From IMG/VR virus record IMGVR_UViG_3300045988_020424: DNA of 20,708 nt. One strand, written 5' to 3'. The DNA is from a virus. Lineage: Duplodnaviria; Heunggongvirae; Uroviricota; Caudoviricetes. A program made the translations under genes and the position numbers. How positions within the stretch are numbered: position 1 is the stretch's first letter; each line of letters starts with the position of its first letter. Below, piece after piece: positions 1-20,203 of the stretch. The notes below the pieces were generated by a model. It ran no database searches. It saw only the letters and a program-made list of their open reading frames with translations, and had not been told where the DNA came from.

Positions 1-105
1 AGGTTTCATTGGGGTATACGGTTCGCCGTTGTGATTGACAACATAAAGCTCTGCGCCGTGGAATGGCACGTTGATAGTAGATACTGCTGTTGCTATACTC
101 GTCAT
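1..105 (-). CDS. Antirepressor (Ant-like) N-terminal fragment; gene continues beyond the window start
   Basis: Minus-strand ATG at 103-105 with the frame open to the window edge. Translation MTSIATAVSTINVPFHGAELYVVNHNGEPYTPMKP shows the F-x-G-x-x-L-x-V-V...G-E-P-Y pattern I associate with phage antirepressor N-terminal domains. It lies directly downstream of the Arc-like gene, as in P22 immI. RBS is weak. Confidence 0.5.
   Translation of the reverse strand, partial: MTSIATAVSTINVPFHGAELYVVNHNGEPYTPMKP
71..99 (+). promoter_or_regulatory. Candidate sigma70 promoter for an antisense small RNA (TTGATA, 17-bp spacer, TATACT)
   Basis: -35 TTGATA at 71-76 and -10 TATACT at 94-99 with a 17-bp spacer. 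It sits inside the 5' end of the ant-like gene on the opposite strand, and predicts a start near 106. Confidence 0.3.
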
Positions 106-14486: not shown

Positions 14487-14783
14487 TCACTCCTGTTCAC
14501 TGGCCTCTTTGGCCATCTTCAAATACTGTTCAGGGCAATGCGCCATAACGCGCTGAAACAGTTCCAGCGCCAGATTGCGTTGCCCCTCATTAAATGCCAT
14601 TGCCATAGCATCCATCGGAGAGATAGCGGAAAACACCCGGCCTTTCTCCAGCACCGACCAGACAACGCGACGCCCCTGTTCACTGCTCATGACAAAGCGA
14701 ATGTCATCAATTTCACGCTGTGCCATGTCACGTTGCTTACGGGCGTTTTCTTCTTTCAGTTGATCGTCTTCGTAATCTGTCAT
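14487..14783 (-). CDS. Hypothetical small protein (98 aa) between portal and scaffold
   Basis: ATG at 14781-14783 overlaps the portal stop (ATGA); its stop is 2 nt from the scaffold start. Charged, helical-looking sequence. Confidence 0.7.
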   Translation of the reverse strand: MTDYEDDQLKEENARKQRDMAQREIDDIRFVMSSEQGRRVVWSVLEKGRVFSAISPMDAMAMAFNEGQRNLALELFQRVMAHCPEQYLKMAKEASEQE

Positions 14784-16459
14784 TGTGATTGCCCACCCTG
14801 ACCACTAACTGCATTCGCCATAGCTGACAAAACACTCGGATCCGAAGTTTTAGCTTCGCTTAGCGTCTTGGCACCCTGTGCCGCCGCCATCCCCATCGCC
14901 ATCATTTGTTGCTGCTGTTGTTGCTGTGCCCGTTGCTGGCGAGCCTGCTCAACCTGTTCCTGCGGAACAATGACGGTTGGAGACACTCCGGACATATCAG
15001 CGAATGCATCGATCGCCTGATCAACGTTGAGTTTGTCGAGAGCTTCTGGTTTCGCTTGCGCAAGTTGACCAATGAAGTTAACCGTGGACGCCAGACTGGA
15101 CAGGCCGATAGACTTCTGCGCCTGAGCCATGACGGAAATGTATTCGACCTTCAGGGGCATACCTTCCATCACGTCTGGCGGTGGCGGCAGCATGTTTTTA
15201 CGCACCATCATCGAGAAAGAGCGGTCAATGAGAGGATTAAGACATTCGTCGTTCAGGCGCTCCAGAACCGGCCCCAACATCAGAAGTTTTTCTTCTTTCA
15301 TTTCGATCACCGCTTCCACAGGCATCGAGCGGGTATTGATGTTCTGCAACATCATGAACAGATCGACAAAGTAGGCGCTGTTAATGATTTGACGAGTGTC
15401 CTGAATGTCTGCCACCAAATCTGCTGTACTGGGGTTAACCAGATAAGCAGGCCTGAAACCATCCTGACCAGTAATCTGATCGATATACGTGATGTCGCCA
15501 GGAAGAAGGGAGGCGCGCTGATTCTTGAGGGAAGTCGGAGCAACCATCGGCGGATTGGTGGCTTTATCAATCAACTGCGACTTGCGCTTCTGGAGAAGCT
15601 GCAATGCCTTAACAGGTCCAAGCGCCAGCATACCCGGGCATGATGATCCATAAACATCTTCGCCGTTAACTTCCCAGCGCGGAGCCATAATTGGAAACTC
15701 ATCGAATCCGGACTCACGCAACAACTTGTCGTTATCGCCACCAACCTCGTAATAAACCGATTTGAATGGCTTGTTCTTGCTATCCAGCTTCGATGTATCG
15801 CGGTCAATGTTCGGGTAAACCGAATGCATCACTTCAATCCACTTCTCGTAGGTGCCGCTTTCCCACATGCTTTTTACGGATTCGCTGACGTTATTTAGCC
15901 CGAACTCCTGAACAAGCTGACGAACAGTCATAGAGAACTTGCGAAAACAGGTGTCCACACTGCCACGAGGTGAGTTAGCCAGGTAGTAACTGCCTATCGG
16001 GAATGGCATTGTGCGAATGATGTCCTCGTCATCCTCCAGCACCGCCATTGCACCAGTGCTGTATGTGCCGAGGCTTCCGTATAACTGCGGAAGAGACTGG
16101 TAGAGATTCGACTTATTGAACATATCGTTCATGCGGTTCTGCACCGCCTCGAGCCACAACTTAACAGGACCATAATCCATCATTTCAGGATCTGGCGTAG
16201 CCAGGCGAAACCACGGACGCGCAGGGCTTGTGATGCCTGACATCATGCCGCTGGCGAGAGTGCGCGCCGCCATAGTCCCGGTCGAATCAATAATGCGTGT
16301 ATTGCGTCGATCGTTACGGTTGACTTCAGAAGTCAGAAAGCGGGAACCACGCGGGTTGATGTAATCACTCAACTCGCGCCAGTGCGGCTCGAACGACTGA
16401 CGCTCGCTTTCAAGTTGTGCGAACTGTTTGTTCAATCGCTCTTTAGTTGTTTCCGCCAT
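14780..16459 (-). CDS. Portal (head-to-tail connector) protein, 559 aa
   Basis: ATG at 16457-16459 with RBS GGAG and 8-nt spacer. Size, Gln-rich C-terminus and position between terminase and scaffold/capsid fit a podovirus portal. Confidence 0.9.
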   Translation of the reverse strand: MAETTKERLNKQFAQLESERQSFEPHWRELSDYINPRGSRFLTSEVNRNDRRNTRIIDSTGTMAARTLASGMMSGITSPARPWFRLATPDPEMMDYGPVKLWLEAVQNRMNDMFNKSNLYQSLPQLYGSLGTYSTGAMAVLEDDEDIIRTMPFPIGSYYLANSPRGSVDTCFRKFSMTVRQLVQEFGLNNVSESVKSMWESGTYEKWIEVMHSVYPNIDRDTSKLDSKNKPFKSVYYEVGGDNDKLLRESGFDEFPIMAPRWEVNGEDVYGSSCPGMLALGPVKALQLLQKRKSQLIDKATNPPMVAPTSLKNQRASLLPGDITYIDQITGQDGFRPAYLVNPSTADLVADIQDTRQIINSAYFVDLFMMLQNINTRSMPVEAVIEMKEEKLLMLGPVLERLNDECLNPLIDRSFSMMVRKNMLPPPPDVMEGMPLKVEYISVMAQAQKSIGLSSLASTVNFIGQLAQAKPEALDKLNVDQAIDAFADMSGVSPTVIVPQEQVEQARQQRAQQQQQQQMMAMGMAAAQGAKTLSEAKTSDPSVLSAMANAVSGQGGQSQ

Positions 16460-16473
16460 TTCAATGACTCCGG

Positions 16474-16680
16474 TTACTGACCAAGCAGCGTTTTACCGCT
16501 GGTATTAGCGGTTGATGTGTCGCCCTGAGAACCGGTAAGCAGCGTAGAACTACGACCAGCAGCAGCGCGACGGCGACGTGTTTCTTCGTCGCGGGCATCA
16601 ACAACGGCGGCATCCTGCTCCTGTGGTGCTGCCTGAACTTCTGGTGTTGCAGGCACTGATGGTGAGCTACCCATGCACAT
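16474..16680 (-). CDS. Hypothetical low-complexity protein, 68 aa, upstream of and coupled to portal
   Basis: ATG at 16678-16680 preceded by CGGAGTCATTGAT, nearly identical to the portal initiation region. Its stop (16474-16476) overlaps the portal RBS. Preferred over the overlapping 79-aa frame (16461-16700). Composition is disordered-looking. Confidence 0.45.
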   Translation of the reverse strand: MCMGSSPSVPATPEVQAAPQEQDAAVVDARDEETRRRRAAAGRSSTLLTGSQGDTSTANTSGKTLLGQ

Positions 16681-17107
16681 ATCAATGACTCCGTACGCAA
16701 TTAAATTATTACCAATTTAACCACATATGATTTATTTATCGTAGAAGGTTGACATTTAACGCGTTAATTATTACCTTTCAGGTAACCAAAGGGCTCATTC
16801 TGGTTACTAACCTGACTGGCTTGTCGTTAAATTAAACAGGTGGAGTGAGCTTTTATTTTGAGCAGTACGGCGTATGGCACATGCGCCGATAGCGGTCTGG
16901 ATACGTTTAAGGGGCACCCTCCCTGGCTGTGGCAAACGAACCAGGTAGCCGGAATGTGCAAGTCGAGCGGTTTTATTCCGCGCACGGGGATTCACCATCC
17001 CGGCGATTCGGTGTGACGCCTCGGAAGAGACGAGGGTACAACGATGAGAGCATTTATGGAGCCGCGACAAAGTGTGGCGCCTTAACAGGCTAAGTGCTCT
17101 CAGCGTT

Positions 17108-17184
17108 GTGGCATTAGCTCAGTTGGACAGAGCAACCGCCTTCTAAGCGGTTGGTCGCAGGTTCGAATCCTGCATGCCACGCCA
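17108..17184 (+). tRNA. tRNA-Arg (anticodon TCT, reads AGA), 77 nt with encoded CCA
   Basis: Manual fold: acceptor GTGGCAT/ATGCCAC, D-stem GCTC/GAGC, anticodon stem ACCGC/GCGGT, loop CTTCTAA (U33, anticodon TCT, A37), variable loop TGGTC, T-stem GCAGG/CCTGC, T-loop TTCGAAT, discriminator G, CCA. D-arm and T-arm match E. coli argU as I recall it, with different acceptor and anticodon stems. Confidence 0.9.
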
Positions 17185-17227
17185 GAATCACGCCTAAGGA
17201 CCGTGATGCCAGAAGTTCCAGGTGCTT

Positions 17228-17269
17228 GGCGGTGATGGTTTCCCTTGAAGGACTATCACCGCCCTTTTT
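17228..17269 (+). terminator. Rho-independent terminator downstream of the tRNA
   Basis: 9-bp stem GGCGGTGAT (17228-17236) pairing with ATCACCGCC (17255-17263), 18-nt loop, then CTTTTTA. Confidence 0.6.
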
Positions 17270-17347
17270 ACAGCAGGACGCCATTGCGATGACTTCATGC
17301 TGTAAACCAGTACAGCCACGGAAGGCATAACTCATTGCTTCCAGTTC

Positions 17348-17370
17348 GCCCGGTTCGCCGGGCATTTTTT
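17348..17370 (+). terminator. Terminator-like hairpin 12 nt upstream of the moron start codon (possible sRNA terminator or attenuator)
   Basis: GCCCGG-TTCG-CCGGGC, a perfect 6-bp stem with tetraloop (17348-17363), followed by ATTTTTT (17364-17370) and then RBS AAGGTGAG. Confidence 0.5.
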
Positions 17371-17381
17371 AAGGTGAGATC

Positions 17382-17804
17382 ATGAAGACAATTGATATGT
17401 TGGCTAAGTATCTAAATGAATGGCCATTAAAATATTCTCGTATCGTTCAGGCTGAAGACTGCATTTTTTATGGCGTTTTTGCTGGTAATGAAATGCATTA
17501 CGAAGTAATTCAGAGTGAGGGACTGGCCGGGTTAACTCTTAGCGAAGACCATGGTACTAGCGTTACGTACCATGACTGGATTTCAGCGCAGAAAACTGAA
17601 ATGGAAAAAGGCAATGTGTTTGATATTTCTCGCGCTGTATACGCCAAAGAAAAAAGTGATGATGATTACATGCGCGAAAACTTATACAACATGAAGTTAC
17701 AATGCCTGGCTGAAGTGCTTAGTAAAAGATCTTTACTTGATGTGGTTGGTGCTGAGCAGGACGCCAAGGCAATCAACGCCGCATTCGATAAAATAACCTT
17801 CTAA
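17382..17804 (+). CDS. Moron: hypothetical 140-aa protein of unknown function, opposite strand to the structural operon
   Basis: ATG at 17382 with RBS AGGTGA and TAA stop at 17802-17804. Only convincing plus-strand gene in the window, visibly AT-richer than its neighbours, followed by its own terminator. Protein MKTIDMLAKYLNEWPLKYSRIVQAEDCIFYG... has no TM segment or signal peptide and no family I recognise. Confidence 0.75.
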   Translation: MKTIDMLAKYLNEWPLKYSRIVQAEDCIFYGVFAGNEMHYEVIQSEGLAGLTLSEDHGTSVTYHDWISAQKTEMEKGNVFDISRAVYAKEKSDDDYMRENLYNMKLQCLAEVLSKRSLLDVVGAEQDAKAINAAFDKITF

Positions 17805-17807
17805 CGC

Positions 17808-17821
17808 CGTGACATGTCACA
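17808..17821. repeat. Copy 2 of 14-bp motif CGTGACATGTCACA (plus orientation)
   Basis: Read directly from the sequence. Lies 4 nt after the moron stop codon and 3 nt before the terminator hairpin. Confidence 0.85.
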
Positions 17822-17824
17822 ATC

Positions 17825-17849
17825 AGCCCGCCGATTCGCGGGCTTTTTT
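17825..17849 (+). terminator. Rho-independent terminator of the moron
   Basis: AGCCCGC (17825-17831), loop CGATTC, GCGGGCT (17838-17844), T-run to 17849. Same stem sequence as the terminator at 431-452. The T-run overlaps the terL stop codon on the other strand. Confidence 0.65.
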
Positions 17850-19323
17850 ATGCAAAAGGATCATAGTCTGTGATGGCTTTGCCTTGCTGGTTCTGCTGCC
17901 CGGGAATTCGCAGACGCTTCGACACAGGGAACGCAAACGTCAGCAGTAGCGCATCGCCTTTACCAGGAGAACGCCCAAGTCGCTCTTTGATATCTTCCTT
18001 CGGTTCGATAACGATTTTACCGTCCACGCGAACTTTGTACTCTGCCGTCGACAGGTCGTCCGCTGTTTCCTGGTCATCCAGCATGCCGCCGAGCCTCAGC
18101 CATGTCTTGCATGAGTTGAACATCTCCCCACGCTTGTTGAGCATCTGCGGGTCAGTAGACGCGCCACCGAACGGAACAAGTTGCCATGTACGACCCCAGC
18201 CGTCACCGATTGACTTCAAACCGGTTCCGTAACCGAAGTCGATGAACACCGCGTCAGCCTGATACTGGTCTTCAAAGTCAGCGATACGCTTCGCCATAAT
18301 CAGATCGTCGGTAGTCTTGTTGCCAGTCCACAGCACCTTACTGTGTAGCCCCTGCCGCAGGTATATCACCGCGTCATCAACGCCGGAGTATGCCGGGTCA
18401 ACGCCGATTATCACCGGAGCATGTGCCACCTGCGCAGCGGTTACCACCCGTTTCATTGCCTCGTCAGTAAGACCGGTAGGGATAAACTGCAATTCAGATG
18501 CATCAGGGAATATGCCGCGCACACGGATTTTAACGAAGTCGCTGTCTTCCCCGTAGTCATCAACCCATTTCTGCAACTGCTGTTTGTTAGTGCCTTCCAC
18601 CGTTCGGCTGTCAATCTGCGCAGTTTTCCAGCGGTGTTTATATTTGCGGAAACATTCGCGGAAACGTCCGGTATTACGCGTCGGGTTTCCGAACGCCACC
18701 CAGATAATCTCAGTGTCTTCGTCCGTTAGTGCACCCTCGGCAACTTCCCACACCAGATCCGCAATGTTCGACGCTTCATCGAATACCACGATGATGCGTT
18801 TGCGCTCGTTGTGTAGTCCGGCGAATGCCTCAGTGTTGTGCTCAGACCAGGGGATTGCGTCAGCTCGCCACCGCTTGTCGTGTCCAGGATCATTGCTGTA
18901 CATCGCGGTAGCGGTACAGGTAAACCAGTCTTTCGTGATAGCAAGGTTCGACCACTTGATAATTTCCGGCCAGGTCTTCGTTCGTAGCTGGTTGTCGGTG
19001 TTGGCGGTCACCACAACCTTACAATCCTCGCAAGTGGACATGCCCCAGTTGATCAGCATTGAGATGAATGCGGATTTACCAATACCGTGACCAGAAGCGC
19101 GTGCCAGCATAAGCGGCTGATAACGCGTCTCTGGATTCTGCAGGTGATCACGTATCTCTCGGAACGCATCGGCCTGCCACTGACGTGGACCGGTAGCATG
19201 TGCCAGTTCAGTCCCCTCTTCCCCCCAAGGGAACGCATAGAGGGCATAGCCAAGCGGATCGTGAGTGAACCCTGCAATATCTTCGATTAACTGCTCTTCA
19301 GGAGATAACGCTGCATCTGTCAC
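17848..19323 (-). CDS. Terminase large subunit, 491 aa
   Basis: Walker A-like motif GHGIGKSAF near the N-terminus, size about 490 aa, position directly after the small subunit. Apparent GTG start at 19321-19323 overlaps the terS stop (GTGA). Confidence 0.9.
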   Translation of the reverse strand: MTDAALSPEEQLIEDIAGFTHDPLGYALYAFPWGEEGTELAHATGPRQWQADAFREIRDHLQNPETRYQPLMLARASGHGIGKSAFISMLINWGMSTCEDCKVVVTANTDNQLRTKTWPEIIKWSNLAITKDWFTCTATAMYSNDPGHDKRWRADAIPWSEHNTEAFAGLHNERKRIIVVFDEASNIADLVWEVAEGALTDEDTEIIWVAFGNPTRNTGRFRECFRKYKHRWKTAQIDSRTVEGTNKQQLQKWVDDYGEDSDFVKIRVRGIFPDASELQFIPTGLTDEAMKRVVTAAQVAHAPVIIGVDPAYSGVDDAVIYLRQGLHSKVLWTGNKTTDDLIMAKRIADFEDQYQADAVFIDFGYGTGLKSIGDGWGRTWQLVPFGGASTDPQMLNKRGEMFNSCKTWLRLGGMLDDQETADDLSTAEYKVRVDGKIVIEPKEDIKERLGRSPGKGDALLLTFAFPVSKRLRIPGQQNQQGKAITDYDPFA

Positions 19324-19916
19324 TGATTGCCATCCTGACGTTCTTTCAGTCTCTTCCTGGCTGCCGCTATGCGATCAGCAATTGTCACATTCACATTAAC
19401 ATCCAGGCGTTCTTTGAATGCATTGACATCGACGTGCTTACCAATCAGTTCGAGGTTCTTCACCTTGTCAGGCCATTTAATTTTTTTGAGGATTGTCTCT
19501 ATCGAATCCTCGTCCATGTTCATGATGGTCGATGACAGATCAAAGCCGCTAAGCGTAGTGCGCCAGATTTTCGGCCACTCGCGGATTGGCTTAAGGCTCC
19601 CATCGTCGTTGAGGATATCAATCACGTCCATCTGGTCGATCTCCACCAGGCGCATGAGAACGTAATCAGCACTGACGCGCATTCGTTTGTTGCGCTCCTC
19701 CATCAACTCGGCAATCCGTTTCTGAATGCGTTCATCGCGCATCATGACACTGGCTTTAACTGCCGCTGTATTTGGGGAGAATCCTGCATTAATCGCAGCC
19801 TGAGTCTGATTTTCAGGCGTTTTGATGTATGACTGGCAATAAGCCTCCTGCATTGCTGTTAGTGGCTTAAATTGCGTTGATTTGCGTTTATAGGTTTTAG
19901 GTTCAGCAGGCATCAT
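19320..19916 (-). CDS. Terminase small subunit, about 198 aa
   Basis: Start re-placed to the ATG pair at 19911-19916 (MMPAEPKTYKRK...) after a GGTGG RBS; the ORF-track start at 19994 would run through an upstream terminator and repeat region. Basic N-terminal segment, then helical domain, directly upstream of terL. Confidence 0.7.
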   Translation of the reverse strand: MMPAEPKTYKRKSTQFKPLTAMQEAYCQSYIKTPENQTQAAINAGFSPNTAAVKASVMMRDERIQKRIAELMEERNKRMRVSADYVLMRLVEIDQMDVIDILNDDGSLKPIREWPKIWRTTLSGFDLSSTIMNMDEDSIETILKKIKWPDKVKNLELIGKHVDVNAFKERLDVNVNVTIADRIAAARKRLKERQDGNQ

Positions 19917-19921
19917 AACCA

Positions 19922-19959
19922 CCATGGTAATAGTTACCGTTGTGGTAATAGTACCATGC
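19922..19959. promoter_or_regulatory. Repeat-rich element immediately upstream of terS (candidate late promoter / regulator or terminase-binding site)
   Basis: Imperfect palindrome: CATGGTA (19923-19929) and TACCATG (19952-19958) flank two GGTAATAGT direct repeats and a GGTAA-N3-TTACC inverted repeat. A -10-like TACTAT lies on the minus strand. Confidence 0.35.
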
Positions 19960-19960
19960 A

Positions 19961-19985
19961 AAATAAAGCCGCCATAGTTGGCGGC
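19961..19985 (-). terminator. Rho-independent terminator between the upstream small gene and terS (minus strand)
   Basis: GCCGCC (19968-19973), 6-nt loop, GGCGGC (19980-19985). On the minus strand it is followed by TTTATTTT (plus 19961-19967). Confidence 0.5.
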
Positions 19986-19990
19986 AGTAT

Positions 19991-20203
19991 TCAAAGTCCA
20001 TCAAATTCATCGTAAAAACTCTCGTCAAGATACCCTTCCCATTTACCGCGAATGAAAATTACATCCTCGCCGCAAGGGTGCTGACTGTCGATAACTATAT
20101 CCCTCCTGGCGCAACCATACTTATGCATGAGAAATTTAACCTCTTTCGGAAAATTTGCTGAGTTATCTCTCATATCTTCAAGGTCGTAGCGTATTTTTGG
20201 CAT
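19991..20203 (-). CDS. Hypothetical small protein, 70 aa
   Basis: Start re-placed to the ATG at 20201-20203 (MPKIRYDLEDMRD...) preceded by GAAGGTG; the ORF-track start at 20224 lies inside the palindrome. No family recognised. Confidence 0.5.
   Translation of the reverse strand: MPKIRYDLEDMRDNSANFPKEVKFLMHKYGCARRDIVIDSQHPCGEDVIFIRGKWEGYLDESFYDEFDGL

Follow-up and report, generated by a model that had tools for sequence, protein, structure and literature searches.

Why should a gene on the plus strand lie between the terL and portal genes of a phage whose late genes are on the minus strand, and when would such a gene be expressed? This question is raised by the open reading frame (ORF) at 17382-17804 in a 20,708-nucleotide (nt) stretch of viral DNA (IMG/VR record IMGVR_UViG_3300045988_020424), the whole of which we refer to as the window. 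The window holds the late genes, which are on the minus strand, of a temperate podophage related to epsilon15 and phiV10 (genus Uetakevirus). A preliminary description of it had interpreted the ORF, which encodes 140 amino acids (aa), as a classic moron expressed from the prophage. Our analyses indicated that the ORF is a real gene, and that it is one of the dispensable, variable cargo genes of a terL-portal hot spot. We tentatively propose that it ends a repressor-controlled plus-strand unit, and that its product may act early, as a host-takeover or anti-defence protein.

Several lines of evidence indicated that the ORF is more than a chance reading frame. There were 107 homologues, with identity down to ~40%, and intact frames were found in homologues from Escherichia coli, Salmonella, Citrobacter, Klebsiella, Enterobacter and Hafnia hosts. 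Pairwise ratios of non-synonymous to synonymous substitution (dN/dS) were 0.07-0.3 at a synonymous divergence (dS) of 0.5-1.5, in both halves of the protein. In addition, the protein had a full-length match to PHROG 4846 (E 6e-92, with residues 1-140 covering profile positions 1-140), and the ORF has a RefSeq entry, WP_000848285.1, as a hypothetical protein. Based on the homologues, the low dN/dS, the PHROG match and the RefSeq annotation, the ORF was confirmed as a real gene under purifying selection. The AAGGTGA of its Shine-Dalgarno (SD) sequence was invariant across loci, 3-5 nt ahead of the ATG. The lower GC content reported in the preliminary description was borne out, as the ORF had a GC content of 0.402 (0.397 at third codon positions, GC3) versus 0.539 (GC3 0.593) for terL and 0.516 (GC3 0.584) for portal; that of the whole window was 0.502. 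PHROG 4846 has no assigned function, and the family can be considered catalogued but uncharacterised. The accession of the 140-aa protein was not mentioned in the literature, and the papers that were retrieved on phiV10/epsilon15-like phages had nothing on the gene.

The position of the gene in relatives revealed what kind of gene it is. We compared 24 complete Uetakevirus terL-portal slots that had been picked by an RNA motif, without reference to the ORF. The 140-aa family was present in five of these slots, the Gp49/Sf6-gp66 family (PF13876) in seven, and neither in the remaining 12. All family members that we recovered were in this one slot, on the strand opposite to the late genes and between gp3/portal and terL, as checked in 80 IMG/VR loci, 3 genome loci and isolated phages, and the family profile had no match in 81 loci from other phage types. 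The family is not a roaming foreign gene; each member found is in the same slot of one phage lineage. The locus was present in 523 of 5426 complete E. coli genomes, including sequence type 131 (ST131) and avian pathogenic E. coli (APEC) K1 strains, and 115 of the 523 carried the ORF. The features in and around the slot of the window are as follows.

14780-16459, minus strand: portal gene (PF12236, E 2.7e-187)
16474-16680, minus strand: gp3-like gene, 68 aa, between portal and the ORF slot
16749-16777, plus strand: promoter-like site recognised by conservation, with −35 TTGACA (16749-16754), 17-nt spacer and −10 TACCTT (16772-16777)
16771-16785, no strand assigned: operator-like inverted repeat TTACCTTTCAGGTAA (TTACC-N5-GGTAA), overlapping the −10 and the start site
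~16867-17054, plus strand: structured non-coding RNA of ~190 nt, recognised by covariation; not in Rfam
17108-17184, plus strand: transfer RNA (tRNA)-Arg, anticodon UCU (ARAGORN; Rfam RF00005, 73.3 bits)
17228-17269, plus strand: intrinsic terminator T1 (hairpin 17228-17263), a 14-bp stem then CUUUUU; found by scan, −22.8 kcal/mol
17267-17306, plus strand: hairpin H2 (UUUACAGCAG...CUGCUGUAAA), nearly invariant; −12.3 kcal/mol
17348-17370, plus strand: intrinsic terminator T2 (hairpin 17348-17363), GCCCGG-UUCG-CCGGGC, then A and U6; found by scan, −12.7 kcal/mol
17371-17378, plus strand: SD sequence AAGGTGAG, ending 3 nt before the ATG
17382-17804, plus strand: cargo gene, 140 aa, ATG start, PHROG 4846
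17382-17615, plus strand: N-domain of its product, residues 1-78 (helix, four strands, helix in the AlphaFold model)
residues about 79-92, plus strand: disordered linker (AlphaFold model)
17658-17801, plus strand: C-terminal helical hairpin, residues about 93-140 (helices 93-114 and 121-137 in the AlphaFold model)
17825-17850, plus strand: intrinsic terminator T3 (hairpin 17825-17844, then U6); found by scan, −13.7 kcal/mol
17848-19323, minus strand: terL, which flanks the ORF
19320-19994, minus strand: terS (PF03592)

The ribosome-binding site and terminator that the preliminary description had attributed to the gene were both found, as the SD and T3. The ORF itself is on the plus strand as had been described, although it had been taken for the only convincing plus-strand gene; the tRNA-Arg(UCU) and the structured RNA upstream on the same strand had been missed. 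The gap also holds two further terminator-like hairpins between the tRNA and the ORF that were absent from that first picture.

The contents of the slot in other phages were diverse. Gp49 was the commonest alternative cargo, and was the only cargo in phiV10 (phiV10p03) and epsilon15, while the slot of BUCT554 contained a 61-aa member of our family followed by Gp49. In locus L177 and one more, a 98-aa Tad2-like gene (PF11195, E 3.2e-24, 85.7 bits versus a cut-off of 25) was located behind an identical junction of T2 and SD. Tad2 is Thoeris anti-defense 2, a proven anti-Thoeris family. In SPN1S-type phages the first cargo gene encoded 138 aa with an N-terminal hydrophobic segment (phrog_11227, labelled "protease" in PHROGs, with no Pfam match). 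Further first cargo genes were orphans of 86 aa, of 143 aa (cysteine-rich, with CxC and CxxC motifs) and of 115 aa (with a repeated MSGDV-type motif), and some loci had second cargo genes encoding DUF551, Gp49 or other orphans. In an E. coli prophage (L216, 1760-1830) the slot was empty, with a 7-codon remnant ORF behind the T2-SD junction. As the family was carried by 5 of the 24 slots, the others had Gp49 or other cargo and L216 was empty, the 140-aa gene is a dispensable, variable cargo at a terL-portal hot spot. It is not a structural component conserved in all relatives, and the comparison upheld its earlier characterization as a non-essential, variable, opposite-strand and AT-rich accessory gene.

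Two observations bear on how cargo might be exchanged. T2 (17348-17370) and T3 (17825-17850) share the core GCCCG..TTCG..CGGGC, and in one locus (L025, 4420-4484) a hybrid hairpin, with the 5' arm of T3, the 3' arm of T2, U7 and an SD, was located ahead of the second cargo gene. The shared core and the hybrid hairpin suggest that cargo is exchanged by recombination between terminator hairpins. A second cargo gene of 246 aa in locus L062 (4490-4562), whose product combines a hydrophobic N-terminal region with a coiled coil, was preceded by an operator-like TTACCTTAAAGGTAg and may have its own repressor-controlled promoter.

Analyses of the 140-aa protein indicated that it is small, acidic (pI 4.8, net charge −8; pI 4.6-4.8 in the family) and predicted to be soluble and cytoplasmic, with no predicted membrane segment or signal peptide. 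An AlphaFold model of the N-domain only had a mean local confidence (pLDDT) of 90 and a predicted template-modelling score (pTM) of 0.78. No matches were obtained for the protein in Pfam (at E up to 0.1) or NCBIfam. PADLOC-DB 2.0 likewise gave no families at E up to 1, a result that says little either way because this database contains defence and not anti-defence models. A sequence-profile search of the PDB produced a single spurious match (E 0.064), and when 1.84 billion cluster representatives were searched with the family profile, only 30 clusters were identified, every one of the same family. A structure search with the full model returned only generic helical hairpins, with no significant solved or catalogued fold neighbour. 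The N-domain matched only a handful of unnamed phage proteins among predicted viral structures (E about 1e-3), and in a tblastn search of isolated phages with E up to 10 it was found only in PAS61 and HEMP4. Comparison of the family to other slot cargo by hhalign showed no relation to Tad2-like proteins (probability 0.7%) or Gp49 (0.2%). Together, these profile-profile and structural searches left the family without a recognised relative and its N-domain without a useful neighbour, in line with the preliminary description, which had recognised no family for the product.

Within the family, the two parts of the protein behaved as modules. Several alleles of the N-domain recombine freely with three alleles of the C-terminal hairpin (C-hairpin). 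The C-hairpin also occurs alone, as the 61-aa protein of BUCT554 and many metagenomic phages, behind a different N-domain in the 123-aa Tyrion gp53, and with an added C-terminal domain in 201-aa variants from Citrobacter. The extra domain of these variants is present, unannotated, in phages of Kosakonia, Pantoea, Pseudomonas, Vibrio and Chryseobacterium. One copy of the 140-aa gene (L053, 4001-4426) was frameshifted and is a pseudogene.

If the gene is cargo, its expression depends on what precedes it. Alignment of 16-24 diverged loci revealed that the 200 nt ahead of the ORF (17186-17381) are a conserved leader, irrespective of the cargo, with a small hairpin, T1, H2 and T2. The stem of T1 had the variants GGTGATGG, GGTGGCAG and GGTACCAG, each of which pairs with its own complement across loci. 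In H2, one A-U to G-C compensatory pair was present in 4 of 16 sequences, and T2 had a double compensatory change (GG/CC to AC/GT), also in 4 of 16. Across loci T2 had a UUCG loop, an A and then U6-7, with the U-run continuing straight into the invariant SD, and it preceded the first cargo gene in all aligned loci, whatever the cargo type. We dropped a broader rule, that a terminator-SD junction is found before every cargo gene, as it held for the first cargo gene everywhere while second cargo genes were arranged in several ways. At the other end of the ORF, the U-run of T3 overlaps the stop codon of terL on the opposite strand; T3 is expected to work in one direction only, because on the minus strand its hairpin has no U-run after it.

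Only about 18 nt separate T2 from the ATG, and these are occupied by the U-run and the SD. No promoter-like site was conserved between T1 and the ATG, based on a consensus scan and the aligned loci. A promoter between T1 and T2 was also considered and dropped, as none fitted and the candidate hexamers were not conserved. Since the interval from T2 to the ATG is too short to hold a promoter, and none is conserved between T1 and T2, the ORF would have to be transcribed from further upstream, through both T1 and T2.

The only conserved promoter-like site on the plus strand is that at 16749-16777, which is 630 nt upstream of the ORF and ahead of the RNA and the tRNA. Its hexamers were conserved, with a variable spacer, in 20 of 20 diverged loci, and we regard it as a candidate promoter. 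The consensus scan did not report this site because its −10 matches the consensus at only 3 of 6 positions. The inverted repeat that overlaps it was not confined to this position. In a 40-kb prophage region (L006) there were 15 copies of TTACC-N5-GGTAA, located within 811-33815, versus 0.72 expected, an enrichment of about 20-fold. Most of these copies were intergenic, with a cluster between the divergent helix-turn-helix genes of the immunity region and two copies ahead of terS. The window itself has three copies (16771-16785, 19916-19930 and 19934-19948) versus 0.34 expected. In the GenBank record of epsilon15 (AY150271), positions 2931-2947, which correspond to the copy at 16771-16785, carry the annotation "repressor; lysogeny". 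These data suggest that the repeats are scattered operators of one repressor. The copies at 19916-19948 fall inside the annotated 224-aa terS ORF, whose true start is probably downstream, near the residues MMPAEPK.

A second conserved site was noted close to the candidate promoter. The block ATTAAATTATTACCAATTTAACCA at 16700-16723, just upstream of the 68-aa gp3-like gene, was identical across genera and more strongly conserved than coding sequence, and it shares a ATTATTACC motif with 16767-16775. This block may be a regulatory site or a separate promoter for the gp3/portal genes; in the latter case the late transcript might not have to run antisense through the ORF, as the preliminary description had supposed that it must.

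The structure of the ~190-nt RNA was supported by 15 diverged Uetakevirus sequences, for which RNAalifold predicted 41 pairs; compensatory changes were present in 12 of these, and 96.9% of the alignment cells were paired. Pairs changed on both sides numbered 12, versus 3.9 ± 1.3 in shuffled alignments (0/500) and 1-3 in slid controls. The RNA was assigned to the plus strand because several of its G-U pairs are invariant. A coding interpretation of this region was dropped, as the length of its short ORFs is variable (40 to 80 aa) and a covariation rich in G-U pairs fits an RNA. A search of Rfam at E up to 10 had no match. An invariant 18-mer of the RNA, GTARCCGGAATGTGCAAG, was found in at least 120 IMG/VR contigs, at least 79 of which were not Uetakevirus-like. 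Homologous copies with ~80% identity over ~200 nt were identified in mEp460, in cdtI and Stx2 phages and in the trnI-ban spacer of P1/P7, where the P1 copy had no following terminator. In mEp460, the copy is located directly after a PL-like promoter, downstream of the repressor gene, and is followed by a T1-like terminator and early genes. Further copies were seen in Klebsiella and Stenotrophomonas phages, and copies outside Uetakevirus frequently had a tRNA(CAU) gene at a distance of about 100 nt. A broader alignment contained a possible alternative long-range pairing of GGCACAU with AUGUGCC. In epsilon15 (L090, 2580-2720), the tRNA and most of the RNA have been lost through a deletion that brings the first RNA helix next to the 3' half of T1, which indicated that both are dispensable for an isolated phage. 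The tRNA-Arg(UCU) was present in E. coli-type relatives and missing from many Enterobacter/Citrobacter-type relatives. The tail genes of the window each have AGA codons 6-7 times.

On the reading that we prefer, these elements would constitute one plus-strand unit, antisense within the late operon, which runs from the operator-overlapped candidate promoter through the ~190-nt RNA, tRNA-Arg(UCU), T1, the leader and the T2-SD junction to the ORF, as its last gene, and T3. Because the promoter-like site overlaps the operator motif, the prophage repressor would be expected to shut the unit off in the lysogen, and the unit to fire on induction or infection. The homology of the promoter-RNA-T1 module to the PL-like leader of mEp460 supports an early-operon position. 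The ORF would be translated only from transcripts that pass T1 and T2, by leak or antitermination, and its product would act early on a component of the host or of a competing phage, with a role in host takeover or anti-defence. Of its two modules, the conserved C-hairpin could serve as the constant one, for oligomerisation or partner binding, and the variable N-domain as the one for specificity. We rate an early takeover or anti-defence role as the most likely one because a Tad2-like gene is a member of the same slot and because the 140-aa protein combines small size and acidity with a modular, rapidly shuffling make-up. The reality of the gene, the variability of the slot, the layout of its elements, the structural conservation of the terminators and the enrichment of the operator motif are shown by the data above. 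The timing of expression, its dependence on read-through and the role of the product are all points that we infer from this arrangement. We hold the picture as a whole tentatively, stopping a little short of calling it probable, and an anti-defence role specifically is less likely than the picture as a whole.

Several points weigh against this proposal. The −10 of the candidate promoter is weak, at 3 of 6 matches, and the site went unreported by the consensus scan, while the operator was predicted from the statistics of the motif and from the annotation of a database record. With two strong terminators ahead of it, the ORF might be barely expressed at all. The anti-defence idea draws on association with a single known family, the Tad2-like proteins, to which the protein, by hhalign, has no relation, nor has it any to Gp49; most of the other slot cargo is equally uncharacterised.

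A bolder version of the proposal sees in the unit a portable early "cargo launcher", where the RNA, as a new class of cis-acting element (such as a processive antiterminator or a processing/stabilising element), would carry transcription past T1, T2 and T3 after loss of the repressor and so deliver interchangeable anti-defence proteins, with the 140-aa protein as a new anti-defence family. A role of the RNA in terminator read-through is conjecture, and we consider this version, in its entirety, to be decidedly unlikely.

Of the alternatives to an early, repressor-controlled gene, the one that survived best was that of the preliminary description, in which the gene is a classic moron expressed in the resting prophage and provides the lysogen with superinfection exclusion, defence or lysogenic conversion. 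We used the definition of a classic moron by Juhala and Hendrix, as summarised in PMC3573123. The gene was present or absent at a fixed position, ended in its own terminator, T3, and was deviant in base composition; it was also on the opposite strand, bracketed by terminators and variable among relatives. However, it had no promoter of its own directly upstream, as none is located between T2 and the ATG, and the sole promoter-like site overlaps the operator motif. That part of the original interpretation which concerned the variable, opposite-strand, AT-rich character and the terminator of the gene therefore stood, and the part which made it a typical prophage-expressed moron found no support in the layout of the locus. 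Some leaky expression from the repressed promoter, or read-through, may occur, and the hydrophobic segment of the SPN1S-type 138-aa cargo is of relevance, since a membrane protein would suit an exclusion role. For the 140-aa protein itself, in contrast, a signal peptide, a membrane segment and a PADLOC match were all not found, and the Tad2-like gene at the same position in relatives would serve an infecting phage rather than a lysogen. Based on these data, we regard expression as a lysogen-serving moron as unlikely.

We also considered whether the protein acts on the RNA of its own unit, with the C-hairpin controlling read-through or processing by binding to the leader, to the precursor of the tRNA or to the structured RNA. 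The C-module, where present, is always in the first ORF behind the conserved leader, and a helical hairpin that also exists as a stand-alone 61-aa protein would be compatible with such a regulator. However, the leader and the RNA occur without the family in phiV10, in 19 of the 24 slots and in all 81 loci from other phages; conversely, one locus whose slot is only 554 nt (L076) has the family while the RNA is missing. The acidity of the protein would also be unusual for an RNA binder, and we judge this explanation to be very unlikely.

We give a similarly low probability to the gene being a decaying passenger, with no present function, that is kept by linkage to the hot spot. Its location behind two terminators, the pseudogene in L053 and the dN/dS of 0.5-0.9 seen in some close homologue pairs are what would be expected of a passenger. 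Against this, dN/dS was low over long distances, frames were intact in phages from all six of the host genera listed above, and the SD was invariant. Finally, a structural role, or one as an assembly or packaging accessory factor working with terminase and portal, was dropped as extremely improbable, as despite its strict terL-portal linkage in every locus found the gene is on the opposite strand in a separate regulatory unit, is absent from the isolated phages phiV10, epsilon15 and SPN1S-type and from ~80% of the sampled slots, one slot being empty, and has a frameshifted copy in L053.

The closest known relatives of the locus were identified with the segment 16400-18000 as query, for which the best phage matches, aligned over the full length, were vB_EcoP_PAS61 and HEMP4; phiV10 and the O157 typing phages aligned over 71% only. 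The segment 17100-17860 had 99.9% identity to the guaA-adjacent prophage of E. coli O1:K1:H7 APEC E16002, which encodes an endosialidase tailspike. Elsewhere in the window, positions 107-174 on the plus strand matched the Rfam sar RNA, the P22 antisense RNA, with 44.8 bits versus a gathering score of 43; this match overlaps a 53-aa RefSeq ORF at 17-178.

These findings have implications beyond the single ORF. The slot is a compact exchange point for small accessory genes, in a prophage locus that roughly a tenth of complete E. coli genomes carry, and it supplies a list of candidate anti-defence and host-takeover proteins on which both the 140-aa family and the 61-aa core rank among the commoner entries. 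The findings also indicate, contrary to a common assumption, that a gene which is AT-rich and opposite in strand to the late operon around it is not necessarily a moron expressed in the lysogen; the gene studied here appears to be early, and gated by a repressor and terminators. The RNA, absent from Rfam yet spread widely among P1-like, lambdoid, Stx and epsilon15-like phages, may prove to be the lead of greater importance, and together with the slot as a source of anti-defence candidates it could give the locus an importance beyond that of the ORF alone.

Phage hot spots with accessory cargo are already known as a kind of genetic element, and the locus can be compared with several known systems. 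Like the morons of lambdoid and other temperate phages, the 140-aa gene is an extra gene that is variable at a fixed position, has a deviant composition and opposite orientation, and ends in a terminator. Unlike them, it has no promoter of its own, is behind two terminators with its promoter-like site under a predicted operator, and belongs to a family never found outside one slot; expression in the prophage would not be expected. A Tad2-like gene (PF11195) occupies the same position behind the T2-SD junction in related phages, and its product resembles the 140-aa protein in being small, soluble, variable and dispensable, but the two have no relation in sequence or profile and share the genomic position only. 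N4 Gp49/Sf6 gp66 (PF13876) has the same slot, strand, leader and T2-SD junction and a similar size, yet is unrelated in sequence and, in BUCT554, shares a slot with our family. The HK022 put RNA is a cis-acting antiterminator of ~70 nt with two stem-loops (PMC9378689) and resembles the RNA of the window in being a structured RNA near an early transcript start with intrinsic terminators downstream. We dropped an identification of the two, as the RNA of the window is ~190 nt with about eight helices, a different size and architecture, and has no evident similarity to put. The nearest parallel to the unit as a whole is in the lambdoid PL operons and the P1 ban leader, where a homologous promoter-RNA-T1 module is found in early, repressor-controlled units with accessory genes, whereas here the module is antisense in a late operon and has a single cargo gene. 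What distinguishes this variant is a cargo gene with no promoter of its own, a series of conserved terminators, a unit led by an RNA and a tRNA under a predicted operator, and restriction to one slot.

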